The translations under genes were made by a program, and so were the position numbers. Shown in pieces: positions 2,347 to 61,583 of a stretch of 64,000 nucleotides of DNA. The notes under the pieces were generated by a model. That model ran no database searches and was not told where the DNA came from. It was given only the letters and a program-made list of their open reading frames with translations. This DNA is from Candidatus Poriferihabitaceae bacterium (GTDB lineage: Bacteria > Pseudomonadota > Gammaproteobacteria > Arenicellales > Poriferihabitantaceae). The stretch covers positions 1,362,773 to 1,426,772 of the forward strand of contig CBDBBV010000002.1 of NCBI GenBank assembly GCA_965203265.1. The letters run 5' to 3'. Numbering within the stretch: the first letter of the stretch is position 1; each line of letters starts with the position of its first letter.

Positions 2347-2836
2347 TTTAGCAGGGTTTAGATCGGAGACGATCGCGCGGCAGCGGATTGCCGAGTATCT
2401 GGGCGGGGCGAGGTTTGCGTTGTTGTGGAAGAATACGCCGATTCTCCGTACTTTGGCGGAGCGGCGGAAGTTCGCACAGGAGCAACCGAGTTTGGACACG
2501 GCGGTGGCGGTGTTCGGCGCGGTGCTGCGGGAGCAGGGGATTCCGCCGTGGATGCGGCTATCCCGGGACGGAATCGGCCATATCAAGGCGAGCGGGCGGG
2601 GGATCAAGCCGGAGCATCTGCGACTGGTGCAGGCGGCGGTGGATGGGGAGCAGACCTATCAGCAGCGCGACAACCAATGGATTAGCTATGCGCGAGACGA
2701 GAAGCGGCAATGGTGGGCGGTGGCGTGGAAGCTTACCGGAGACGGGCGGCGAGCGTATCTGACGACGTTCCATCGAGCAGACGATCGGCATATCGAGCGA
2801 GATCGGCGACGCGGCGGGGAGGATGGAGAGGGGTGA
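2339..2836 (+). CDS. hypothetical protein (165 aa), paralog of 3007..3315
   Basis: GTG start 7 nt after AAGGAGG. The N-terminus ([14 protein letters not shown]) and the C-terminal block ([24 protein letters not shown]) align with the next ORF. I do not recognise a family with confidence. Confidence 0.5.
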
Positions 2837-2945
2837 TAGACGGTGCCTGCGGGCGCGTGACCTCCCGGTGGAACCTGTCCAGAACGACGACTGACTCAGG
2901 CACCCAATCGCAGGGTACTCCCTCGTAGGGGCAGTGTCAACTCAT

Positions 2946-3014
2946 TGTACGATGCCGATACATCCCGGACTCCGGGTGGTTTGAAAGTGGCGCAAGGAGG
3001 CGACAAGTGATTGA
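2946..3014 (+). repeat. 69-bp repeat copy 2 (solo IS481-like IR + RBS + start)
   Basis: TGTACGATGCCGATACATCCCGGACTCCGGGTGGTTTGAAAGTGGCGCAAGGAGGCGACAAGTGATTGA; see copy 1. Confidence 0.8.
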
Positions 3015-3315
3015 ATCAGTGGAATTGAGGACGGAGACGCTTGGGCGGGCGTTGGCGCGGACGATTGCCGATCCGGATGAGATTTGGCAGGTGAAGCTCC
3101 CCATCAAGCAGGATGTCGGCAGAGAAGTCGAAAAACGGAACTATGTGAAGTTTTGGCGGGATGAGGGCAAGACGTTAGCGACGCTGGCGGTGTTCAAGCG
3201 GGGGGATGATGGGTGGAAGATGGTTACAGGTTTCCAAGTCGACAGGAACGATTGGCTCTCCTACCTCAACCGACAGGTGCGCTTGGGCGAGCTGGTATAT
3301 GACAAGACAAAGTGA
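3007..3315 (+). CDS. hypothetical protein (102 aa), paralog of 2339..2836
   Basis: Same RBS and GTG context as copy 1. MIESVELRTETLGR... and ...LATLAVFKRGDDGWKMVTGFQVDRND align with ORF 2339..2836. Confidence 0.5.
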   Translation: MIESVELRTETLGRALARTIADPDEIWQVKLPIKQDVGREVEKRNYVKFWRDEGKTLATLAVFKRGDDGWKMVTGFQVDRNDWLSYLNRQVRLGELVYDKTK

Positions 3316-3626
3316 AAGCCGACAACGCCGCCCTATCCGAAGGTGCGGCTGGAAGAAAACAAGACGCCGTATACGGTATCGGTGATGGGGCGGGGAGATG
3401 GTGTACGAAAGAGGGGAAAATCAACCGGCCATGCCGCCGCATGACCGGTAACCCTTTGCTGCGCCTGATGAGGTCCGGCGGGAGCACTGCAACAGCAAGA
3501 GACCTGATTTTTCAGGATACCACTTGGCAGCGCCGCCGCCGCGCCACGAATTTCCGGGTTTGTAACTCTTCAAAGACGGCGTGATTCCCGGATGTTCAGC
3601 GAGTATTACAACATGCGGCGGGGGTG

Positions 3627-8938: not shown

Positions 8939-10624
8939 ATGCCAACCAATGAAGCCCCGCCGGAACGCGAATCCATGGCGGTCGATGTGGTCATAGTCGG
9001 TGCCGGGCCGGCCGGATTGTCCGCCGCCTGCCGATTGATGCAACGGGCTCGCTCGGCCGAACGGGAACTGTCCGTGGTGGTGCTGGAAAAGGGATCGGAG
9101 GTGGGCGCGCACATCCTCTCCGGCGCCGTGTTCGAGCCGCGCGCGATGGATGAATTGTTTCCCGACTGGAAACAGCTCGGAGCGCCGCTCGATACGCCGG
9201 TCTCGGCCGATCGGGTATACATGCTGCGAAACGCCGAAAAGGCCATCGCCATGCCCCACTGGATGGTGCCGAAACCGATGCGCAATCAGGGCAACTACAT
9301 TGTCAGTCTCGGCGATGTATGCCGTTGGCTCGGGCAGCAGGCCGAATCCCTCGGCGTGGAAATTTTCCCGGGTTTCCCGGCGTCCGAGGTGCTGTACCAC
9401 GAAGACGGCGGCATCAAGGGCGTCGCCACCGGAGAAATGGGGCGCGCCGCCGACGGCGAGCGCAAGGGGTCGTTCGAGGCCGGCATGGAATTGCACGCCC
9501 AAGTAACGATCTTCGCCGAGGGCTGCCGCGGCCACCTCGGCAAACAATTGATCGACCAATTCCAGCTGGACGCCGAGAGACAAACTCAGCATTACGCCAT
9601 CGGCATCAAGGAACTGTGGCAAATCGATCCGAGCAAGCACGAACCCGGTCTGGTGGTGCACGGCGCCGGCTGGCCGCTGTCCGAGAGCGGCGCTTCCGGC
9701 GGCTCGTTCCTCTACCATCTCGGCGACAATCTGGTATCTCTTGGGTTGATCACCGATCTGTCGTATCAAAACCCCCACCTCAGCCCCTTCGATGAACTGC
9801 AGCGGCTGAAGCACCACCCGGTGTTCAAAACGCATCTCGAAGGCGGCGAGCGCATCTCCTACGGCGCCCGCGCCATCACCAAGGGGGGCTTGAATGCGCT
9901 GCCGAAGATGGTGCTGCCCAACGGACTGCTCATCGGCTGCGACGCCGGTACCCTCAATTTCTCCAAGATCAAGGGCTCCCACACGGCCATGAAATCCGGC
10001 ATGTTGGCCGCCGAGGCCGCGTTCGAGGCGCTCGCCGACGGCGGCGCGGCGCTGGATTCCTATCCGCGCCGCTTGCGCGAGTCGTGGCTCTACCGGGAGC
10101 TGTACCGCTCGCGCAATTTCGGTGCGGCGCTGCACAAATTCGGCATGTGGATGGGCGGCGCCTACAATTACCTCGACCAGAACCTGTGCAACGGCAAACT
10201 GCCATTGAAGCTGACCGACCCGGTAGCGGACTGCGACACCCTGCGACCGGCATCCGAGTGCGCGCCCATTCCCTACCCCAAGCCCGACGGCAAAATCAGT
10301 TTCGACAAGACCTCATCGGTGTATCTGTCCAACACCAATCACGAGGAGGATCAGCCGGTGCACCTGCGCCTGAGCGAGCCGTCTCGGGCGGTGGCGATCA
10401 ACCTCGACAAATACGCCGGCCCCGAGGCGCGCTTCTGCCCAGCCGGCGTGTACGAATTCCTCGCCACCGAAGACTCGGCGGCGGCGGCCACGGCCACGGC
10501 GGAACTTCGCATCAACGCGCAAAATTGCGTGCATTGCAAAACCTGCGACATCAAGGATCCCACCCGCAACATCACCTGGGTAAGCCCGGAGGGCGGCGGC
10601 GGGCCGAATTATGTGAGCATGTAG
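8939..10624 (+). CDS. electron-transfer flavoprotein:ubiquinone oxidoreductase (ETF-QO)
   Basis: ATG at 8939 after GAGGAG. It has the FAD fingerprint VDVVIVGAGPAGLSAA and the C-terminal 4Fe-4S motif NAQNCVHCKTCDIKDP. Confidence 0.9.
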   Translation: MPTNEAPPERESMAVDVVIVGAGPAGLSAACRLMQRARSAERELSVVVLEKGSEVGAHILSGAVFEPRAMDELFPDWKQLGAPLDTPVSADRVYMLRNAEKAIAMPHWMVPKPMRNQGNYIVSLGDVCRWLGQQAESLGVEIFPGFPASEVLYHEDGGIKGVATGEMGRAADGERKGSFEAGMELHAQVTIFAEGCRGHLGKQLIDQFQLDAERQTQHYAIGIKELWQIDPSKHEPGLVVHGAGWPLSESGASGGSFLYHLGDNLVSLGLITDLSYQNPHLSPFDELQRLKHHPVFKTHLEGGERISYGARAITKGGLNALPKMVLPNGLLIGCDAGTLNFSKIKGSHTAMKSGMLAAEAAFEALADGGAALDSYPRRLRESWLYRELYRSRNFGAALHKFGMWMGGAYNYLDQNLCNGKLPLKLTDPVADCDTLRPASECAPIPYPKPDGKISFDKTSSVYLSNTNHEEDQPVHLRLSEPSRAVAINLDKYAGPEARFCPAGVYEFLATEDSAAAATATAELRINAQNCVHCKTCDIKDPTRNITWVSPEGGGGPNYVSM

Positions 10625-10661
10625 CCGTAGCCGCGCCCGCGTGCGCCCTGCCCTTTCCCCT

Positions 10662-13600
10662 TCAGTCCACCCACACCCGCGCATTGCGGAAAATCCGGAT
10701 CCACGGGCTGTATTCCCCCCAATCGTCCTCGCCATCGGGCCGCCAGGAATTGCACACGGCGCGAAACACCCGTTCCGGATGGGGCATCATGATGGTGAAC
10801 CGCCCGTCCTCGTTGGTGAAGCCGGTTACGCCGCCGGGGGAGCCATTGGGATTTGCCGGATAGACCTCGCTGGCGCGCCCGTGGTTGTCGACGAAGCGCA
10901 GACCGATCTGTTGGCGGCGCTCCAGCCGGGCGAGATCGCCGGCGGCGAATTCCGCCCGACCCTCGCCGTGGGCGGTTGACACCGGCAGCATGGTGCCGCG
11001 CATCCCGCGCAGCAGCACCGACTCGTCCGAGCACACCTCCACCATGGCCACGCGGGCTTCGTACTGCTCCGAGCGGTTGCGCGCGAAGCCGGGCCAGTGC
11101 GCCGCGCCGGGTATCAACTCCTTGATGGCCGCCATCATCTGACAACCATTGCAGACGCCCAGAGCGAAGGTGTCCGCACGCGCGAAGAACTCGGCGAAAA
11201 TGTCCCGCAGCCGGGAGTTGTACAGAATGGACTTGGCCCACCCCTCTCCGGCTCCCAGCACATCACCGAAGGAAAACCCGCCGCACGCGGCCAAGCCCTT
11301 GTAGCGCACCAGCGACCGATCGGCGGCGAGATCGCTCATGGTTACATCCACCGCGGCAAAACCGGCGCGGTCGAACGCCGCCGCCATTTCCAGCTGGCCG
11401 TTGACTCCCTGCTCGCGCAGGATGGCGATCTTCGGGCGCTGTCGGCGCGTCGCAAACGGCGCGGTGATGTCCGTCTTGTGGTCGAAGGTCAGCCGGGAAA
11501 ACAGCCCCGAATCGTCGCGCGCCTCGATGCGCGCGTATTCCTCATCGGCGCACGCCGGGTTGTCGCGCAACTTCTGCATGCGCCAAGTGGTCTCGGACCA
11601 AGTGCGCTGCAGCGCCACGCGCGCCACCCGCAGCAAGGTCTCGCCGCCGCGAGTGATGTCGATGTGGTCGTCTTCGCTGATGCGGCCGATGCGATGAGCC
11701 GCCTCCCCCAGCCCGAATTGGCGGATTTGCGCCGCAATGGCATCGCGCTCGGCGCGGCGGGTCTGGATTACCGCGCCCAACTCCTCGGTAAAGAGCACCG
11801 CGAGGGGGGGGCCAGCCAGCCGGTCCAGCTCGATATGCAGGCCGCAGCGCGAGGCGAATGCCATCTCGCACAGGGTGGCCATCGCGCCGCCGTCCGAGCG
11901 GTCGTGGTAGGCCAGTATGCGCCGCTGGCGGGCGAGGGATTGAATCAGCTCGAAGAATTGCCGTAGCAGGTTGGCATCGTCCACATCCGGCGCCGAGTCA
12001 CCCATCTGCGCGCTCACCTGCGCCAGCACCGAGCCGCCCAAGCGGTTACGGCCGAGGCTCAAATCCAGCAGCCACAGGTCGCTGCCGTCTTTGCCGAGGC
12101 GGCAATCCAGCCGAGGCGTCAGGGTATGGCGGATGTCGTCCACCGCGGCGAACGCCGTTACCACCAGCGAAACCGGCGAAACCGCCTTGCATTCGCGCTC
12201 GGCTCGGTCGCGCCACACGGTTTTCATCGACATCGAGTCCTTGCCCACCGGAATCGATATACCCAGTTGCGGACACAGGTCGAGTGCAACCGCGCGCACC
12301 GCCCGAAACAAGTCGGCGTCCTGACCGGATTCGCCGGCGGCGGCCATCCAGTTGGCCGACAGTTTGATATTGCCGATGGTGCCGATGCGCGCCGCGGCGA
12401 TATTGGTGATCGCCTCGCCCACGGCCATGCGGCCACTGGCGGGAGCGTCGAGCACGGCCAGCGGCGTACGCTCGCCGAGGGCGACCGCTTCGCCGGTATG
12501 GGTGTGATAGTCGTCGGCGACCACGCCCACATCCGCCACCGGCACCTGCCACGGGCCGACCATCTGATCTCTGGCGACCAAGCCGCCGACGCTGCGGTCG
12601 CCGATGGTTACCAAGAAAGTCTTGTCGGCCACCGTAGGGAAAGCCAGCACCTGTTCAGTGGCGCGCCGCAGGGACAGGCCATCCAAGCGCAACTTCGCGC
12701 GTGCGCCGGGGGCGCTGACGGCATCCAAATTCATCTTCGGCGGCGAGCCGAACAACATCGCCATTTGCAAATCCACCGGAGTCGCGTGCGGCTTCCCCTG
12801 CGCGGCAAAATGCTCGTCGCGCACCAGCAGATTCTGCGCCGCATCGGCGCGCCCCACCTCGGCGTAGGGGCAACGCTCCCGCCGGCAGATCGCCTCGAAC
12901 TCGGCAAAACGAGACGGCGCCACCGCCAGCACATATCGTTCCTGCGATTCATTGCACCACACCTGCATCGGCGTCATGCCCGATTCGTCGCTGTGCACTC
13001 GCCGCAATTCGAAAGTGCCGCCGCGCGCGCAATCGTGCAACAGCTCCGGCAAGGCATTGCACAGTCCACCGGCGCCGACATCGTGGATGGAGACGATGGG
13101 ATTGCCTTTACCCAGCGCGCAGCAGGTGTCGATGACTTCCTGACAGCGCCGCTGCATTTCCGCGTTGCCGCGCTGCACCGAGGCGTAATCGAGCGTTTCC
13201 GAGCGGTTGCCGGAAGCGACGCTGGAGGCGGCGCCGCCGCCCAGCCCGATCAACATGGCCGGACCGCCGAGTACGACTATGGGGGCGCCTTCGGGGATGG
13301 TGTCCTTGCGGATGTGTTGTGGGCGGATGGCGCCGATGCCGCCGGCCAGCATGATCGGCTTGTGGTAGGCGTGGCGGAAGGCGCCGTCGCCGCCGGGCGG
13401 AATCTGCTCGAAGGCGCGGAAGTAACCGGCGATGGCGGGTCGCCCGAATTCGTTGTTGAAGGCGGCGGCGCCGATGGGCGCTTCCAGCATGATGCGCAGC
13501 GGCGAGGCGATGCGCGCCGGTTTGCATTCGTCCCCCTCCCACGGGCGGCGGCAATCCGGTAGCCGCAGGTGCGACACCGAATAGCCGACTATGCCCACCT

Positions 13601-54548: not shown

Positions 54549-55502
54549 ATGCCCACCCTGATCACCGGTTCCTTCGCTTACGACACCATCATGGTGTTCC
54601 ACGACCGGTTCAAGAACCACATCCTTCCCGAACAGACGCACATCCTCAATGTATGCTTCGCCGTGCCGGAACTGCGGCGGGAATTCGGCGGCTGCGCCGG
54701 CAATATCGCCTACAACCTGAAATTGCTCGGCGGCGACCCGCTGCCCATGGGCACCGTGGGGGAGGATTTCGCGCCGTATCGCAGCTGGCTGGAGGAAAAC
54801 CGCATCGACCTGACTCACGTGGTCGAAGTGCCGGGCGCCTTCACCGCTCAGGCATTCGTAACCACCGATGCGGACAACAACCAGATCACCGCCTTCCACC
54901 CCGGCGCCATGGAGCACGCCCACCGCAATCGGGTAACCGACGCCGCCGCCGACGCCGCTGGAATCGATTTGGGCATCGTCGCCCCGGACGGGCGCGAAGC
55001 CATGATCCAACACGCGGCGCAATTCGCCCGCGCCGACATCCCCTTCATCTTCGACCCCGGCCAAGGGCTGCCCATGTTCACCGGCGCCGAGCTGGATCAA
55101 TTCATCGAGCAGGCAACCCACATAGTGGTCAACGACTACGAAGCCGAACTGCTGCAGGAAAAAACCGGCAAGAGTCTCGAACAAATCGCCGCCCGCACCC
55201 AATCTCTGGTGGTAACTCGCGGCGCACGCGGCGCCGACATCCACAGCGACGGCGCCTGCATTCACATTGCCGCGGTGCCCATCGATCAAGCGAGGGACCC
55301 CACCGGCTGCGGCGACGCCTTCCGCGCCGGCTTGCTATACGGCCTCGCCCACCACCTCGACTGGCAAACCAGCGGGCAAATCGCCTCCCTCCTCGGCGGC
55401 ATCAAGATCGAACAACACGGCACGCAGAACCACAGATTCGACAAATCCGAATTCGAGGCGAGATACAGGGAGAGTTTCGGCGATTCGATTCGTTTGGCCT
55501 GA
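54549..55502 (+). CDS. PfkB-family carbohydrate/nucleoside kinase
   Basis: Motifs GGCAGNIAYNL and DPTGCGDAFRAGLLYG. Confidence 0.8.
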   Translation: MPTLITGSFAYDTIMVFHDRFKNHILPEQTHILNVCFAVPELRREFGGCAGNIAYNLKLLGGDPLPMGTVGEDFAPYRSWLEENRIDLTHVVEVPGAFTAQAFVTTDADNNQITAFHPGAMEHAHRNRVTDAAADAAGIDLGIVAPDGREAMIQHAAQFARADIPFIFDPGQGLPMFTGAELDQFIEQATHIVVNDYEAELLQEKTGKSLEQIAARTQSLVVTRGARGADIHSDGACIHIAAVPIDQARDPTGCGDAFRAGLLYGLAHHLDWQTSGQIASLLGGIKIEQHGTQNHRFDKSEFEARYRESFGDSIRLA

Positions 55503-55592
55503 GTGGTGCGGCGGGGTCGGCGGCGGCGCGCCCCGCGCATCTACCGTGCCGATTATTCGGCCCCGCGTGTCGCAAGGAGGAGAAGAGAATCG

Positions 55593-57224
55593 TTACGCAA
55601 CGCCCTCGTTGAGCACAGCGGAACCGCCCACAGGCACAAACAGATCGGCTTGGACTTCCAATCGTCGCTTCGCCAATGCGGGAAACAGCTCGACCAACGC
55701 CTCCGCCGGGACGTTTCCCAGTTCCCTCGGTTCCAGTTTGTGCAGCCCGCCCCCGTAGACGCGACCTTCACCGAGCATAGCCTGCGGGCAAATCCGGTTC
55801 AGATATTCCCACACCCGCCTCTTCAGTTCCGGCCGATCCGACAAAGCGCGCGCAACAGGCGCCCGTGGGTACAACATCAGGTATACATTCGCCGCCGTCG
55901 CCTTCGAATGGTTCAGAATGAAGCGGAACGGCCTACCGTTCTTCTTGTCGCTCCGCCCAAGATAAGTGCAAACAAACGGTGCCGGAGGGCGGTATTCTTG
56001 CGCGTACCACATCGCCCGATGTCGGCAAATATAGCGATCGGCGGTGCCCGCCGCTCTGCCTTCTTGCAAATAAATCCACAGATTCGGGTAGCGCTTCCTG
56101 ATCTCATCTTCCGTCCACGGCGGATCCAGCAGAAACAATCGCCGCTCCAACACCGGATTGCCATCGCAATCAGATGTAATTTCGTCGTCCGGAACATAGC
56201 GTGGGCTTGGCAGAATCGGCTTGAATGCGTCGATGGGCAACCCACGGGACGCAATTTTCCGTTGCGACAATATGAAGTAACTGTTGTTACCGGTAACAAT
56301 GCCCCGCTTGATCTTGAACAAATCACCCAGCACCGCCCCGCCCACCGTTTCGTGGGATTCCTTCACCGGATAGCGCGTCCACTTTGCATCGCGGCGCAGG
56401 GTTTCCACCGAAACGGATCGTTCCAGCCTCGGTCGTTGCAGCGTTCCGCCGAAAGTGAATCGTATATTCCCCCCAGTCAGAGGCGGCTTGTTGCGGAACC
56501 ACACAACCGCCGACGACACAAGCGCGTCACCGAACTGCACTTCATTCGGATCGAAACGGTGAATATGCAAGAGCGTAACCTTGTCGAGCAGATAACTCTT
56601 CACCGAGACGCCGTAATTCACATCCATGAACTCGCTTGGAATCAACCAGCCTGCCAGAGCATTATCGGCCATCCAAACATGACTCAAACCCAGAAAATAG
56701 CAATAGAGACCGGCCAGTCCGCCGATCTCCACCCCGCAAGCGTTTCGCGCGCGCATCTTCAATCGCTGTTTCTCACCGCTGACAATGTGATGATGTCGCA
56801 CATATGGCGGATTGCAAATCAGCAGATTGAATTTTTCGGCAGGAAGCGGCGCCTCGGCTTGAGTGAAGTCCTCGAGGCGAATATCCAGACCAGTCTTGCC
56901 CCACAGTTTCTTCGCCGAACCGCCGTAATGCGGATCGACTTCATATCCCACGGCAGCACTGATGCGATCTTGCGGAAAAACACCCAGCAAAGCCGAATAG
57001 AACGCTCCCGTGCCGATGGCCGGATCGATGAATCGCACCTTCTCGTCTTTTGCGAAATGCCTGTTCGCATAGCGTTGAATATCAACGGCCAAGTCGGTCG
57101 GCGTCGCGAATTGTCCCATTCGGTTGCGGCTAGCGGAGTCCCGTTGCCGATCAAGCAAATCCTGTAAAGCCAGTCGCTGCGCCTCGAATTCTGCAACGGT
57201 TTTATTGGGAATTATGTGTGACAC
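55593..57224 (-). CDS. gamma-class (Eco57I/TaqI-like) N6-adenine DNA methyltransferase; N-terminus rebuilt by a transposon TIR
   Basis: Motifs GQFATPTDLA, DPAIGTGAF and LLICNPPYV. The usable in-frame start is now GTG at 57224, inside the tnpB-element TIR. The track ORF extends to 57287 through the tnpB 3' end. Confidence 0.85.
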   Translation of the reverse strand: MSHIIPNKTVAEFEAQRLALQDLLDRQRDSASRNRMGQFATPTDLAVDIQRYANRHFAKDEKVRFIDPAIGTGAFYSALLGVFPQDRISAAVGYEVDPHYGGSAKKLWGKTGLDIRLEDFTQAEAPLPAEKFNLLICNPPYVRHHHIVSGEKQRLKMRARNACGVEIGGLAGLYCYFLGLSHVWMADNALAGWLIPSEFMDVNYGVSVKSYLLDKVTLLHIHRFDPNEVQFGDALVSSAVVWFRNKPPLTGGNIRFTFGGTLQRPRLERSVSVETLRRDAKWTRYPVKESHETVGGAVLGDLFKIKRGIVTGNNSYFILSQRKIASRGLPIDAFKPILPSPRYVPDDEITSDCDGNPVLERRLFLLDPPWTEDEIRKRYPNLWIYLQEGRAAGTADRYICRHRAMWYAQEYRPPAPFVCTYLGRSDKKNGRPFRFILNHSKATAANVYLMLYPRAPVARALSDRPELKRRVWEYLNRICPQAMLGEGRVYGGGLHKLEPRELGNVPAEALVELFPALAKRRLEVQADLFVPVGGSAVLNEGVA

Positions 57225-58400
57225 TTGACAAGCCTCATACTTGCGGGCAAACCGGAGCAACCCCCAGCTTAGCGCCCAACGGAGCATTCCCGCCCCTTTT
57301 CTTGATATTCACAGCGGCGTTCCTATCCCTATCCATCACCAACCCGCATTGCGGGCAGGAATGGACGCGAACCGCCAGCGACTTTTTCACAATCGCGCGG
57401 CAGTCGGAACACATCTGCGTTGTCTGTTTCGGGTCAACTTTCATCACTGCCAAGCCAGCACTTTCAGCCTTGCATGTCAGCCGTTCGACAAAAGCAGCCC
57501 ACCCTACATCCGAAACCTGCCGCGACAACATCCCTCGCGCCAAGCCTTTCACATTCAAGTCCTCGACAATCAGCGTCTTGCCCTGCTCCACCAATTTTTT
57601 CGCTGCCTGCCAGTGGAAATTTGCTCGCTGATTCCGCACCCGCAAGTGCAGTCGTTCTACTACTTTCCGTTGCCGCTCCCTGTTTCCGCTGCCGCGCTGC
57701 TTTCTCGCAAGCGACCTCTGCGCTACGCGAAGCCGTTTCAATTCCCGCTGCAGGAAGCGCGGGTTCGGAATCTGTTCCCCGGTGTCCGTTGTCAGGAAGT
57801 GCGTCAACCCTACATCGATTCCCATCGTGTCGGATACCGGAACGCGGGCAACATCCGGCAGGTCGAGCGTCAGTTGTAGTTTCCAACCTTTCGCGTCCCG
57901 CACCAACCGAGCGTATTTCTGCCTTGCTTCGGCTGGCAATGGGCGGTGGAAGTAGACGCGCAGGCGGCCATTAATCCCCTTGAACGAGAGAAATCGCCAA
58001 TTTCCGTTGCCGATTTCTATCCGATAGACTTTCTCCAGATCAATGCTCCGCCAGCGATTTCTCCCCTTGAATCTTGGGAAACCACAACCTTCCTTGAATC
58101 CCTTGAAAAACGCCTTGAACGCCTTGTCCAGTCGCGTCAGCGCGCCCCGCCCTATCTGGGCGGACTGCTCACGCCACCCTTCGTCAAATGAGCGTATCTC
58201 GGTCAAACTTTTGCATTGGTCGTAGTACGAAATCCCCCGCCCAGTCCGTTTGTAGCAGTCGATTCGCTCCTGCAACGCCGCGTTGTATAGCCCGCGCGTC
58301 ATGCCGAGCAGGACAAGCAGGCGCTTTTCCTGGCCCTTTTGCGGCAAACAACGGTATTCGTAGGTGCGGATCATCTTGTCAAGATTGATACATAATTCCC
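57207..58400 (-). mobile_element. 1194-bp tnpB-only element with 26-bp terminal inverted repeats and 8-bp direct target repeats
   Basis: GGGAATTATGTGTGACACTTGACAAG (57207-57232) and CTTGTCAAGATTGATACATAATTCCC (58375-58400) are inverted copies, 22/26. They are flanked by GTTTTATT at 57199-57206 and at 58401-58408. Confidence 0.8.
57235..58374 (-). CDS. tnpB: TnpB (OrfB) RNA-guided endonuclease-family protein
   Basis: 379 aa. RuvC residues lie in MGIDVGLTHF, LIVEDLNVKG and DRDRNAAVNI. The zinc finger is CSDCRAIV...CPQCG. Confidence 0.9.
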   Translation of the reverse strand: MIRTYEYRCLPQKGQEKRLLVLLGMTRGLYNAALQERIDCYKRTGRGISYYDQCKSLTEIRSFDEGWREQSAQIGRGALTRLDKAFKAFFKGFKEGCGFPRFKGRNRWRSIDLEKVYRIEIGNGNWRFLSFKGINGRLRVYFHRPLPAEARQKYARLVRDAKGWKLQLTLDLPDVARVPVSDTMGIDVGLTHFLTTDTGEQIPNPRFLQRELKRLRVAQRSLARKQRGSGNRERQRKVVERLHLRVRNQRANFHWQAAKKLVEQGKTLIVEDLNVKGLARGMLSRQVSDVGWAAFVERLTCKAESAGLAVMKVDPKQTTQMCSDCRAIVKKSLAVRVHSCPQCGLVMDRDRNAAVNIKKRGGNAPLGAKLGVAPVCPQV

Positions 58401-58414
58401 GTTTTATTCATCGT

Positions 58415-59377
58415 CTACAACCCGAATTCGGCAAGATCGTCGATGCGGTGTTCCCATACCCAATCGATGCCTTCCGCGGCCTCATAGCCGAGATAACCGC
58501 TGTCGAAATATCCACACAGGAACAGGATGTAACGTACATCGTCACCAAATGTTCGTCGCAACAAACTCATCTTTTCGGCTTCTTCCTTTCGTCGCTTGTT
58601 TACGTTTGTAAAGTCTCCCGCCGACTTTGCCTCGATAAGCAACGGCAGTTCGCCTGCTTTCGCCGCCTTTGGCATCACCACCGTATCCACCGGCATATTG
58701 ACGAGTCTGGCGGCCCCATCCTGCTCTACCGGAACGTTGAGTCGATACGAATACGTCCCCGGCGCCATCTTGTCGTACTTCGCGCCTTCGCCCGCCGGTT
58801 GGTTTTCATATCCTCGGGCTGTCAACCAGCTGCCAATCGCATTCAGTTGACGCTTCTCCTGCGCGTTGCGGATGATCGGGTTGGCAACGGCACCGCAAAG
58901 GCGATCCGCCACAATCGTTGCCGCCCGATACCGTTCCTGTTCGGACGGATCGTCGCCGCGAGCCAGCCAAACAAAGACATCCGGATCGGCCATCCGCTCG
59001 ATGATTTTCCCGATCTTCTCAAGGTCTTCGTCGATCTCGCCTGCGGGCATTCGCGCAGGAAGCCTATTGTCTTTCTCCATTACCTTGACGAGGTTCCCCG
59101 ATACGCCTGCAAGCCCAATCAGCCGATCCACGGCCAAGGGTGGACAAGTGGACATGCGCAACGACGGCAACACCGAGGGGTTCGCCCGCAACAACGCCAC
59201 GCCCACATTCGTCAGGTTCATCGTCGATTCGAGTGTTGCCTCCACGTCCTGAGTGGTCTGCACCCGCGTTGTCCGGTATGCCTTCGGCGCAAATCGCATG
59301 AACCAGTCGTTGTACATGTCCACCGACTGCGCAATATCCCGTTTCCACTGATCCGGCTTATTCCGGTTGATCGCCAT
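58415..59377 (-). CDS. type II restriction endonuclease (resembles the XamI family from memory)
   Basis: Trimmed to MAINRNKPDQWKRDIAQSVDMYNDWFMRFAPKAYR; the ATG at 59377 lies 8 nt after GGGAG. It contains LLIEAKSAGDFTNVNKRRKEE (ExK). Before the tnpB insertion its stop lay 3 nt from the methylase ATG. Confidence 0.6.
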   Translation of the reverse strand: MAINRNKPDQWKRDIAQSVDMYNDWFMRFAPKAYRTTRVQTTQDVEATLESTMNLTNVGVALLRANPSVLPSLRMSTCPPLAVDRLIGLAGVSGNLVKVMEKDNRLPARMPAGEIDEDLEKIGKIIERMADPDVFVWLARGDDPSEQERYRAATIVADRLCGAVANPIIRNAQEKRQLNAIGSWLTARGYENQPAGEGAKYDKMAPGTYSYRLNVPVEQDGAARLVNMPVDTVVMPKAAKAGELPLLIEAKSAGDFTNVNKRRKEEAEKMSLLRRTFGDDVRYILFLCGYFDSGYLGYEAAEGIDWVWEHRIDDLAEFGL

Positions 59378-59603
59378 CACTGGAGCTCCCGCCTGAGCAA
59401 CCGACCGCGCGGCGATCGCCGGCAACGGACGATTTCCTTACACGGCTTTCCGGCGGCCTCGAGCCGATGCCCCCACGCGATGGCACAATCGAACATACTG
59501 CACAGTATCGCATGACTTCGGCTCGCGCCGCTCGATTTTCTACGCTGATCGAAGTTCGATCTTGCCTCCAAGTTGATTTTGCGCCGGTAGGTGGGGTAGC
59601 ATT

Positions 59604-59627
59604 CCGCAAATCCCGCAAATTGCGGGG
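59604..59627. promoter_or_regulatory. operator-like direct repeat plus palindrome in the divergent R-M control region
   Basis: CCGCAAAT (59604-59611) is followed by the 15-bp palindrome CCCGCAAATTGCGGG (59612-59626), ~45 nt upstream of the RHH gene. Confidence 0.3.
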
Positions 59628-59673
59628 TTTTGCCCGATTTTCGGGCGGTTATCTACTTACGGAGGTGGGCAAA

Positions 59674-59898
59674 ATGTTGACTGTTACCGTACCGAAAAAT
59701 CTCGAGAAGCAGATCAGGAAAATGGCCGAAGAGGTCGGGCGAACGCCGGAAGACTATGTTCGCGTGGTTTTGGCAGCCGGCTTGGAGGAGCTTGATGCGG
59801 TGCATGAGGCATTCAAGTCGTTCCAGCGAGTCCGGAGCGGAGAGGAAAGGACCTATACGAGAGAGGAAATGCGGGCTGAACTTGGGTTGGACGATTAG
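59674..59898 (+). CDS. ribbon-helix-helix (CopG/antitoxin-like) small protein
   Basis: ATG 6 nt after GGAGGTG. MLTVTVPKNLEKQIRKMAEEVGRTPEDYVRVVLAAGLEE has the beta-alpha-alpha pattern of RHH proteins. 74 aa. Confidence 0.6.
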   Translation: MLTVTVPKNLEKQIRKMAEEVGRTPEDYVRVVLAAGLEELDAVHEAFKSFQRVRSGEERTYTREEMRAELGLDD

Positions 59899-59989
59899 GT
59901 GTTCCGATGGGAATTGGGCATTATCACCGAGGGGGGTTCCGGCTGAAAGTGGCTAGAAAAAATGCGCTGAATGCACAGGCGGTGGACTC

Positions 59990-60865
59990 ATGAGCCTAGC
60001 CGCCGCCCTCACCGCAGTCCCGAAAACGCTTCCCCGATCCAACCGCTCGAATTCGCCGTTCCGCTATCCGGGCGGCAAGTTCTATGCGCGCAAGTTGATT
60101 CTCGACGAACTGCCGCCACACGATCTGTATTGCGAGCCGTTCGCTGGGGGAGCCAGCGTATTCTTTGCCAAGCAACCGGCGCGGGTTTCGTTCCTGAACG
60201 ATGCGGACGCGGAAGTGGTCAACACGCTGCGGCAAATCCGCGACAGGGTAGAAGATCTGATCGGATTATTGCACGGCATTGAAGCGACAAAAGAAAATCA
60301 CGCCTACTACAAGAACGAGTTCGAACCACGTTGCGGCCTCGAACGCGCTTTCCGATGGTTCTTTCTGAATCGCACATCCTATAGCGGCATCATGCGCCGG
60401 GAGAACTGCTACTGGGGTTACGGGCGCAAATACTCGATGTGCCCGGAGAACTGGCCGCCGCACCTGCGAACCGTGTCCGACAGGCTGCAAGGCGTGGAAC
60501 TCACCTGCATGGATTTCGAACTGGTGATCGACGCGCTGCCGAACGGCTGCTTCCTATTCATCGACCCGCCCTACTACGCCGCCGACCAGCAGAAATTCTA
60601 TTCATGCGCCTTTGCTGTGGAAGATCATCTGCGGTTGGTAGAGTGCCTCAAACGCAACAGCGAACGGCTACCCTTCCTGTTGACCTACGACGAACATCCG
60701 GATGTGAAACGGATGTACGCATGGGTTGAGTCGATCAACAATCGGCAATGGAACTACACCATCAACCGCACCGACGACCAGCGAAACGGATCAAAGCTGA
60801 AAGACGGTTTCCGCGGCGTTCGGGAGAAGGGAAGAGAACTGTTTATCAGGAACTACGATGTCTGA
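59990..60865 (+). CDS. alpha-class (Dam/D12-family) N6-adenine DNA methyltransferase
   Basis: Motifs FRYPGGK, CEPFAGGASVF and FLFIDPPYY. Confidence 0.85.
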   Translation: MSLAAALTAVPKTLPRSNRSNSPFRYPGGKFYARKLILDELPPHDLYCEPFAGGASVFFAKQPARVSFLNDADAEVVNTLRQIRDRVEDLIGLLHGIEATKENHAYYKNEFEPRCGLERAFRWFFLNRTSYSGIMRRENCYWGYGRKYSMCPENWPPHLRTVSDRLQGVELTCMDFELVIDALPNGCFLFIDPPYYAADQQKFYSCAFAVEDHLRLVECLKRNSERLPFLLTYDEHPDVKRMYAWVESINNRQWNYTINRTDDQRNGSKLKDGFRGVREKGRELFIRNYDV

Positions 60866-61583
60866 AAACGACGACGCCTTGCGGATCTACCGGAGCATTC
60901 GAGAATACTGCATCACCTACAACATCCCACAAGAAAACCTGCTCGATATACTGGAAGATCAAAAGGTAGTGCCGATGATTCGGGGCAAGGCGACCGAGTA
61001 CATCGGCGCGGCCGTTCTCAAGCAGGCCCTGGACCCCCGCGATTGGGACGTGCAGAAACTGAATCTCAACCCGCAACCGGGCATGTACGATGAAGATGTG
61101 GGCATCACCTACAAGCGCACCGGAGACAGGCTGAAAGCCGAGACCAAAAACGCAGTCCGTGCCAGCTTCCGCATGGCCACAAGACAGACGAAAGCGCCGC
61201 ACTTCAAGATCAAATGCCACAAATCGCGTAGCAATATCGAGAAGGCCACTACCACGAATGACCGCTATCTAGTCGGCGATTTCGACGTTCTGCTGGTAAA
61301 CGTGTCAAACGCGATTTTCCGAAGAAAGACGCTGGATCGAGGCTTGCCCCTGATCGAAGACTCCGCGCTGATTGCGTGGCTTCAAGCATTCTACAAGGCG
61401 CGATCAGAAGACGAGTTGCGCCAAGCCAGTTACAATGATTGGCGAGTTTGTCTGCCGGTAACAATCGCCCAAGAAGACGACACGATACCGCGCACCCCTA
61501 CCGTGTACATGGAAAACGATCCGAACTGGTTCGGCCTCGACCAGTTGGCGGCGAAACTTCGCACACTGATAAACGGTGGCTGA
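60858..61583 (+). CDS. probable cognate type II restriction endonuclease
   Basis: The start overlaps the methylase stop (gATGtcTGA). MYDEDVGITYKRTGDRLKAETKN gives a D...ExK arrangement. I recognise no family. Confidence 0.5.
   Translation: MSENDDALRIYRSIREYCITYNIPQENLLDILEDQKVVPMIRGKATEYIGAAVLKQALDPRDWDVQKLNLNPQPGMYDEDVGITYKRTGDRLKAETKNAVRASFRMATRQTKAPHFKIKCHKSRSNIEKATTTNDRYLVGDFDVLLVNVSNAIFRRKTLDRGLPLIEDSALIAWLQAFYKARSEDELRQASYNDWRVCLPVTIAQEDDTIPRTPTVYMENDPNWFGLDQLAAKLRTLINGG

Follow-up and report, generated by a model that had tools for sequence, protein, structure and literature searches.

A tnpB element with IS1595-type terminal inverted repeats directly after the start codon of a restriction-modification methylase gene

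TnpB is the ancestor of Cas12 and serves as a genome-editing tool, and most of what is known of its biology comes from the "peel-and-paste" elements of the IS605 and IS607 groups, in which transposase and nuclease share a target motif. The tnpB gene considered here is found in other surroundings. Within a 64,000-nucleotide stretch of contig CBDBBV010000002.1 from a Candidatus Poriferihabitaceae bacterium (this whole stretch is called the window), a small element with tnpB as its only recognisable gene interrupts the methylase gene of a restriction-modification (R-M) operon, and is bounded by terminal inverted repeats (TIRs) and an 8-bp target-site duplication (TSD). Elements of the IS200/IS605 and IS607 groups have neither TIRs nor TSDs (PMC13565253, PMC6188088). 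The locus thus poses two questions, namely what kind of transposon carries this tnpB, and how an insertion at the very start of a methylase gene might be tolerated. The comparisons below make it very probable that the element is a non-autonomous DDE transposon of the IS1595 family, holding tnpB instead of a transposase gene and moved in trans.

The element and its insertion site

The element spans 57207-58400 on the minus strand (1,194 bp). On the plus strand the region reads GTTTTATT (57199-57206), GGGAATTATGTGTGACACTTGACAAG (57207-57232), the tnpB gene, CTTGTCAAGATTGATACATAATTCCC (58375-58400) and again GTTTTATT (58401-58408). In gene orientation, the order is the endonuclease gene, its stop codon TAG, ACG, the ATG of the methylase, AATAAAAC, the left TIR GGGAATTATGTATCAATCTTGACAAG, tnpB (ATG...TGA), GG, the right TIR CTTGTCAAGTGTCACACATAATTCCC, a second AATAAAAC, and then CGTTGCAGAATTC... 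of the methylase. The two 26-bp TIRs are inverted copies that agree at 22/26 positions, with the outer 11 and inner 9 nt identical. They form the longest inverted repeat of the region (85% identity), and their outer 11-mer occurs at just these two sites within the window. The duplication is perfect, with its left (58401..58408, minus strand) and right (57199..57206, minus strand) copies abutting the TIRs; the chance probability of an exact 8/8 direct repeat in this position is ~1.5e-5. The tnpB gene itself (57235..58374, minus strand, 379 aa) leaves 26 nt outside it at the left end, where the left TIR (58375..58400, minus strand) directly abuts its ATG, and 28 nt past its stop at the right end. 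A preliminary description of this locus had claimed that a tnpB-only element, having TIRs and a target duplication of 8 bp, interrupts codons 2-4 of the methylase. This is confirmed, and its coordinates, sequences, TIR counts and 8-mers, as well as the leader reading frame and GAGG spacing discussed below, all proved correct when the window was read again.

Little else is found within these boundaries. Both ends, when folded as single-stranded DNA, lack subterminal hairpins (z=+0.22 and +1.03 against shuffles), and the Y1-type ends that the preliminary description had considered as another explanation of the boundaries are thus not seen. No serine recombinase is encoded in the element or in its neighbourhood in the window, as judged from the list of open reading frames (ORFs) and Pfam, and no group I intron of Rfam matches positions 55000-60000 at E<=1. 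There is neither a promoter nor a terminator consensus inside the element, and no Shine-Dalgarno sequence for tnpB, as the abutting left TIR leaves no space for one.

The interrupted operon encodes a XamI-type R-M system. Its first gene, for a restriction endonuclease of the XamI family (58415..59425, minus strand), is an intact ORF that matches Pfam RE_XamI with E=2e-115 over model positions 2-256 of 256; 3 nt separate its TAG stop from the native ATG of the methylase. The second gene encodes an Eco57I-type (M.XamI-like) N6-adenine methylase, translatable over 55593..57224 (minus strand) from a GTG at 57224 (VSHIIPNKTVAEF...). Its closest homologue, the uninterrupted P0121 (538 aa, N-terminus MNKTVAEFEAQ), is 98% identical and is encoded at locus L001, where synteny with the window extends over the adk, D12 methylase, methylase, pfkB, fur and ubiH-like genes at 94-97% identity. 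At the insertion point L001 reads ...GGGTTGTAG ATG AATAAAAC TGTTGCAGAATTC, with a single 8-mer and no element. The empty site that had been predicted from the window therefore exists as regards the single AATAAAAC, the ATG start and the MNKTVAEFEAQ terminus, whereas the spacer between TAG and ATG is 0 nt there and not the 3 nt expected. The native N-terminus of the methylase is confirmed by distant homologues, which begin MMKKAVAQFEAQR and similar.

The L001 operon has not otherwise remained whole. About 950 nt of its XamI endonuclease gene have been lost (L001 3930-4003 corresponds to window 58430-59391), leaving the last ~14 nt and the stop, so that the L001 methylase is an orphan. An intact endonuclease gene together with an intact methylase gene lacking tnpB was seen in none of the genomes examined. 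The arrangement of endonuclease, tnpB and methylase genes recurs at 97.5% identity in a second sample (L206). The endonuclease and methylase genes are in pieces in L206, but this is not taken as pseudogenisation, L206 being a long-read contig of 2.4x coverage.

The product of tnpB, the only ORF of the element with a family match, carries the Pfam domains HTH_OrfB_IS605, OrfB_IS605 and Cas12f1-like_TNB. It scores 259 bits against the NCBIfam model guided_TnpB (cut-off 100), and 112 bits against IS607_TnpB, which is far under the cut-off of 350. Among solved structures it is most like ISDra2 TnpB (8EXA), to which residues 5-360 align with E=3e-41. The RuvC motifs GIDVG, VEDLN and DRDRNAA are conserved with ISDra2 TnpB, and D187, E271, D350, C325, C340 and C343 are invariant across 17 relatives; with this RuvC D-E-D triad and these zinc-finger cysteines, TnpB is predicted to be catalytically intact. 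The pairwise ratio of nonsynonymous to synonymous substitution rates (dN/dS) among the tnpB copies is 0.10-0.19, from which it follows that TnpB has been kept by selection within its TIR-bounded vehicle. It is presumably kept since RNA-guided cutting of empty sites would aid the persistence of the element, as in IS605.

Further copies and IS1595-family elements with the same ends

Other copies with TIRs and 8-bp duplications, for which the preliminary description had proposed a search, were found. The source contig encodes at least five TnpBs of the same family, and six other insertions with 89-95% DNA identity to the window element are present on ENA metagenome contigs (L002, L091, L089, L087, L088 and L090). 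All seven of these close insertions, the window copy included, carry TIRs, with the right TIR starting 2 nt past the tnpB stop or overlapping it, depending on the copy. Perfect 8-bp duplications, each of a different sequence, flank four of the seven. Besides the window copy, these are L002 (AATGTAAC / AATGTAAC) and L091 (AACCCGAA / AACCCGAA), both at gene starts, and L089 (AATTTTTT / AATTTTTT; TIRs 23/26), which lies away from a gene start. The flanks of the intergenic L087 agree at 7/8 (TAGCCAAA / TAGTCAAA). The elements of L089 and L090 (both 2421-3609) are 100% identical and occupy different sites in one metagenome, which indicates recent movement.

The same architecture extends to more distant relatives. 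A Paracoccaceae locus, L028, encodes a TnpB with 37% identity between the TIRs GGGGATTATATGGATAACTTGACAAG and GGGGCTTATATACATAACTTGACATG, which are flanked by a perfect 8-bp duplication of AAATGTTT; counting L028, perfect duplications are present in 5/8 copies. This locus, along with L033, L039 and the loci with Y1 transposase neighbours described below, stems from a profile scan of genome contigs with the TnpB alignment, in which the relatives among the matches listed are all at or below 41% identity. The right-end terminus AAGTATATAATTCCC also occurs in Hyphomonadaceae and Binatia relatives. Because L028 and these other relatives share their ends, the architecture is a trait of the lineage and no one-off.

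Elements with the same type of ends are found to encode a DDE transposase, as the preliminary description had suggested might be looked for. A scan of JGI metagenomes with the TIR pattern GGGRNTTATRTAYNNRNCTTGACA (the ends of this element type can be written as GGGAATTAT(N)~9CTTGACA) returned 19 loci, none of which encodes a relative of the window TnpB. Four of them (L187, L188, L192 and L194) encode, in the first ORF past the left end, an IS1595-family transposase, which matches Pfam DDE_Tnp_IS1595 (1e-38 to 2e-45) and Zn_ribbon_IS1595 as well as NCBIfam transpos_IS1595 (7e-55). The L187 element measures 3,640 bp (9082-12721), with TIRs at 23/26 and a perfect duplication of AACGGGAA; those of L192 (1,921 bp) and L194 (1,936 bp) both have TIRs at 21/26, with perfect duplications of TAAGAAAA and AAACTTCC, respectively. 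A fifth locus, L200, holds a gene-less element of 849 bp with TIRs at 22/26 and a duplication matching at 7/8.

The ends of tnpB elements and transposase elements are identical at 17-24/26 positions and conform to a common consensus, GGGaATTATATAC..ACTTGACAaG. Compared with the ends of L187, L188, L192 and L194, the window TIRs score 17-22/26 and those of the sister copy L089 up to 24/26. The window right TIR (57207..57232, minus strand) is 17-20/26 identical to the ends of the IS1595-transposase elements, and the left TIR is 22/26 identical to the left end of L194. It is also 24/26 identical to the left end of L197 (752-1281). This last end, which is 25/26 identical to the left end of L002, precedes the N-terminal part of a TnpB of a different lineage, one that matches HTH_OrfB_IS605 and escapes detection by tblastn with the window TnpB; the TIR vehicle thus seems to have taken up tnpB more than once, or its cargo to have strongly diverged. 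Additionally, in L039 (Binatia) a decayed tnpB element lies at a distance of 1.5 kb from a gene for an IS1595 transposase that has a related left end.

Other cargo is also carried between TIRs of this type. Genes resembling HsdM and HsdS of type I R-M systems are found in L187 and L204, and one for an HSDR_N-domain protein in L190; L199 is listed with these among elements having IS1595-type TIRs and defence-type cargo. Several contigs with cargo elements bear the accession prefixes LXNI or LXNJ, which we take to denote a marine-sponge metagenome. A scan of viral contigs with the TIR core gave 95 single matches, none with a GGG terminus, which were set aside as chance matches.

These observations bear on what moves the element. 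It is regarded as non-autonomous because tnpB is its sole ORF with a family match, and because tblastn against the 64-kb window gave no match to an IS1595 transposase. Mobilisation in trans by a DDE transposase, which the preliminary description had proposed, is supported by the same TIR type and 8-bp duplications on the IS1595-transposase elements, and is the simpler reading because these ends bound both such elements and the gene-less L200. We infer that an IS1595-family transposase supplied from elsewhere would bind to the TIRs and, through 8-bp staggered cuts, place the element in A/T-rich 8-mers. A/T-rich 8-bp direct repeats are described for elements of this family (PMC12561309), in which non-autonomous derivatives and members carrying passenger genes are also known (Siguier et al. 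2009, as cited in PMC12561309).

Several findings weigh against an IS1595-type element moved in trans. Two of the seven close copies, L088 and L090 (flanks AATCAAAT / ATTGCTAG), have no recognisable duplication, which for L090 could be due to recombination between copies or to an adjacent deletion. No IS1595 transposase gene lies within the 64-kb window, and the source contig is absent among the best 120 listed homologues of the L194 transposase, although this is a weak test. An element with both a transposase and a tnpB of the window type was not found. Lastly, the closest TnpBs outside the group (L083-L086, 61-64% identity) lack IS1595-type TIRs; the association between TIRs and TnpB is therefore patchy and its history not simple.

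In a rough neighbour-joining tree, the window group, L028, L033 and two TnpBs of Bosea plasmids form one clade, and among the matches listed in the genome-contig scan a gene for a Y1 TnpA adjoins at least 8/80 distant TnpB relatives. Since the wider TnpB clade includes such neighbours, the nuclease was most likely captured from an IS605 lineage. Plasmid and phage collections yielded only TnpBs at or below 40% identity, and the best plasmid matches, those of Bosea, have different ends.

As for a guide, the Rfam scan for an omega-RNA gave no match, the alifold consensus across distant members was weak (-9.3 kcal/mol), and the single-sequence fold of the window right end did not rise above shuffles (z=-1.42). 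The terminal 15 nt of the right end are conserved because they are part of the TIR. The sole hint of an RNA module is a solo right-end copy of ~120 nt in L033 (5001-5119), which ends ...AAGTATATAATTCCC, lacks tnpB and lies ~900 nt downstream of a full element; it may represent either an omega-RNA module that stands alone or a remnant with a single end.

The ends of some other relatives were also recorded. In L083 (1400-1520), L084 and L085 (1353-1470; TnpB P0005, 64% identical), a 38-nt repeat, GGTGGGAAAGCATTTGGTTTTGAGTGCATGTCCACCCC, directly follows the tnpB stop, and after ~28 nt that differ between the loci a second copy of GGTGGGAAAGCATTTGGTTTTGAGTGCATGTCCACCCC completes a miniature repeat-spacer-repeat, which is either CRISPR-like or a duplicated guide-RNA end. 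The TnpB of L086 (3001-4180; P0009, 61% identical) is found inside a phage-like cluster of methyltransferases (C5, D12-like and MT-A70) and has no left TIR; the ATG of its right-end remnant, GAGTATATGATTCCCC, opens the gene of the C5 methylase downstream (MIPRVFDLFCGGGG), a further instance of a right end that leads into a methylase gene. The sister-clade TnpB elements of L208 (2398-3791; Bosea sp. ANAM02 plasmid pANAM02) and L207 have different inverted ends, with a 19-nt identical core, CCGGCATCCGAGGTTGATC, from which a hairpin is also formed at the right end. L208 lies between the copies of an 8-bp direct repeat, TTTGTTAG, and these ends may constitute a second vehicle with TIRs and 8-bp duplications for the same TnpB clade.

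Insertion directly after start codons

The second question is raised by more than the window copy. In three independent insertions (window, L002 and L091), the duplication begins directly after the ATG of a host gene, and the element lies in the orientation of that gene. In the window the host gene is that of the methylase, in L002 it encodes an outer-membrane efflux protein with a signal-peptide-like N-terminus (MNVTRQSLLRRL...), and in L091 it is accA (MNPNYLEFEKPIAELE...). In all three, the host ATG, the 8 nt of the duplication and the left TIR combine into a 10-codon ORF that ends 4 nt before the tnpB ATG. This leader reads MNKTGIMYQS* in the window, where it runs from the native methylase ATG (58411-58409) through the duplication and into the left TIR (58379..58411, minus strand), MNVTGIMYQT* in L002, and MNPKGIMYQT* in L091.

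The right TIR of each contains an in-frame start, from which translation would read ...IIP into host codon 2. This start is a GTG after GAGG in the window and L091, and an ATG in L002. In the window, the GTG occupies 57224-57222, and the Shine-Dalgarno-like GAGG (57233..57236, minus strand), which overlaps the tnpB stop TGA (57237-57235), lies 8 nt upstream of it; the same layout is present in L091. The right copy of the duplication, corresponding to the single copy of L001, now supplies codons 7-9 (N K T) of the restarted methylase. The in-frame ATG and GTG of L002 and L091 lend support to the earlier proposal of a methylase whose translation is rescued by the right TIR. The further proposal that the methylase could restart only at GTG 57224 was too narrow, as the frame is open back to the stop at 57311-57309 and also offers TTG 57260 and ATG 57287. 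In the public annotation of the source genome, the methylase begins at this ATG 57287 (P0252, 564 aa; 55593-57287, minus strand), which falls inside the 3' end of tnpB. The resulting 26-residue N-terminal extension (MLRWALSWGLLRFARKYEACQVSHIIP...) is found in no homologue and is probably artefactual.

The restart codons are not peculiar to gene starts. It was considered whether the extra nucleotides at the right end of the window copy, relative to the consensus ...AAGTATATAATTCCC, had arisen after insertion as an adaptation that created a restart codon, and this was rejected because the same subtype is present in L091 and the ATG subtype in the intergenic L089 and L090. Two right-end subtypes thus carry restart codons, and since these also occur in copies away from gene starts (L089 and L090), they are properties of element subtypes.

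A scheme for expression of the window operon can be put forward from these features. The element landed right after the methylase ATG of the XamI-type operon, in sense orientation. Because it lacks a promoter, a terminator and a ribosome-binding site, transcription of tnpB probably starts at the operon promoter, and its translation would come about by re-initiation after the 10-codon leader that begins at the host ATG. The methylase would in turn re-initiate at the GTG of the right TIR, 8 nt past the GAGG. The intact endonuclease ORF argues for continued synthesis of the methylase. Co-transcription of the three genes, their translational coupling, the restart, an active methylase and the strong selection for its rescue that was proposed earlier are all suggested by sequence.

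The recurrence of start codons exceeds expectation. An ATG stands directly 5' of the duplication in 4/9 tnpB elements, against a background of 1.5% (P ~7e-6), and in 0/4 of the elements that share these TIRs but encode a transposase or no gene at all. The fourth tnpB element with such an ATG is L039, where the ATG is no gene start. This pattern may have arisen because harmless, expressed insertions are selected, through a sequence preference, or from a requirement of TnpB for its target-adjacent motif (TAM).

According to the last of these, and provided that the guide begins at the duplication, the motif would be NATG, in the 3-4 nt 5' of the duplication, and retention would favour insertions adjacent to it irrespective of gene expression. 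Both the excess of ATG among tnpB elements, L039 included despite its not being at a gene start, and the lack of ATG in the elements without tnpB speak for such a motif. However, three of the four ATGs are real start codons with the element in the same orientation, which is far above the expectation for a trinucleotide TAM. Several copies also have no ATG, and the folds revealed neither an omega-RNA nor a guide boundary. A TAM is therefore a rather unlikely cause of the recurrence, if one to be kept in mind.

A broader proposal, offered tentatively as a possible rather than a probable account, is that the chimera of tnpB and IS1595 ends acts as a "translationally transparent" transposon. Such an element would end up, or survive, in sense orientation right after a host ATG, use the host ribosome-binding site and ATG for its leader, and return translation to the host gene through the start in its right TIR, so that genes such as the methylase and accA could tolerate the insertion. 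The ATG might at the same time be the TAM, which would tie retention of the element to gene starts.

Other possible vehicles, related systems and implications

Three further explanations set aside an IS1595-family element with tnpB as its cargo. The element might be the product of a recent nested insertion, in which a conventional IS605-type tnpB element entered a miniature inverted-repeat transposable element derived from IS1595, the TIRs and tnpB forming no functional unit. A gene-less element of this kind with the same TIRs does exist in the 849-bp L200. There is, however, no room for IS605 ends, as each TIR either adjoins the tnpB ORF or runs into it, the same tight layout is present in L028 with its TnpB of only 37% identity, and TnpB is under purifying selection across copies; nesting is thus improbable.

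It is highly improbable that the element mobilises itself, with TnpB, by its RNase-H-like RuvC fold, acting as a transposase on the TIRs. This would suit an element with tnpB as sole gene, the presence of several copies per genome, two of them identical, and the want of a partner in the window or, among the best 120 homologues of the L194 transposase, on the source contig. We know of no TnpB that catalyses transposition, and the same TIR type with 8-bp duplications is found on IS1595-transposase elements without tnpB and on the gene-less L200. TnpB is also dispensable for the transposition of IS605 (PMC13565253).

Hardly any credence can be given to an ordinary IS200/IS605 element of the IS1341 group that a Y1 TnpA would mobilise in trans and whose inverted ends and 8-mers would be incidental, for although at least 8/80 distant TnpB relatives adjoin a Y1 TnpA gene and ISDra2 TnpB is the closest solved structure, the ends are symmetrical inverted copies of each other that form no subterminal hairpins and fold no better than shuffles, the flanking 8-mers vary between copies and match within a copy in 5/7 close copies (one of them at 7/8), the empty site L001 has a single 8-mer, the same ends bound IS1595 transposase genes, and IS200/IS605 elements have no TIRs or duplications (PMC13565253).

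Mobilisation in trans by an IS1595-family transposase can next be set beside what is known. The carriage of TnpB on DDE transposons is already known in general. In the main text of their PNAS paper, Altae-Tran et al. (2023; PMC10691335) describe six branches of TnpB linked to DDE transposases, every one with inverted terminal repeats, as well as solo TnpBs that have these same ends and are inferred to move in trans. The "undescribed vehicle" of the preliminary description was thus too strong a term. Across that main text and a review of 2026 (PMC13565253), the DDE families named with TnpB are IS630, ISL2 and IS1031. The window element resembles these branches in that TnpB lies within an inverted-repeat transposon with its 3' end near the transposon end. 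It differs in that the main text of Altae-Tran et al. mentions no IS1595 and describes no start-codon insertion with leader and restart, but its lineage may conceivably be one of their six.

The element agrees with the IS1595 family in its TIR consensus, its A/T-rich 8-bp duplications and the existence of cargo-carrying and gene-less versions. Unlike typical members, it lacks a DDE transposase with an N-terminal zinc ribbon and has tnpB as its sole gene. Full-text literature searches found no paper on tnpB as IS1595 cargo, and no report of the start-codon insertion pattern was found in the literature. Repeated insertion at host start codons and in line with the gene, involving a leader ORF and a TIR restart, appears to be undescribed.

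Partial parallels are found in other groups. IS1341-group elements also have tnpB as sole gene, measure ~1.2 kb, occur in multiple copies and are presumably moved in trans, but their ends are asymmetrical and form hairpins, their target is a tetra- or pentanucleotide, and they make no duplication; nothing of this kind is seen in the window element. IS607 elements differ through their serine-recombinase TnpA, their GG ends and their lack of the TIRs and TSD seen here. IStrons, which are chimeras of a group I intron and an IS605 or IS607 element, likewise place a tnpB element in sense orientation inside a host gene while sparing its function. They restore the gene by RNA splicing, whereas the window element has no intron nor space for one, and any sparing would be translational, by leader and TIR restart. 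Fanzor, the eukaryotic TnpB, is found in DNA transposons with TIRs and TSDs (PMC10711439, PMC3627910). Here too a TnpB-family nuclease is the sole gene of a non-autonomous cut-and-paste element, and the 3' end of the guide RNA meets the TIR and TSD, although the window element is bacterial, with a compact ISDra2-like TnpB and a prokaryotic insertion sequence as vehicle.

The surroundings of the operon add one further observation. A gene for a D12-class adenine methylase (window 59990-60865, plus strand) overlaps by 8 nt an ORF of 241 aa without a Pfam match (60858-61583, plus strand), and the pair is kept in L001. Possibly these two genes form another R-M pair, and the stretch from adk to fur would then be a small defence island.

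As a nuclease carried in a DDE cut-and-paste vehicle, the window TnpB represents a prokaryotic counterpart of the route taken by Fanzor in eukaryotes. It raises the questions of where the guide starts if a duplication stands in between, how a TAM is set without the choice made by a transposase, and what benefit the nuclease brings to a transposon of this kind. The start-codon insertions suggest a route by which a transposon may enter essential or addictive genes, such as accA or an R-M methylase gene, without death of the host, and they bear on the evolution of operons, on genome annotation and on the stability of R-M systems.

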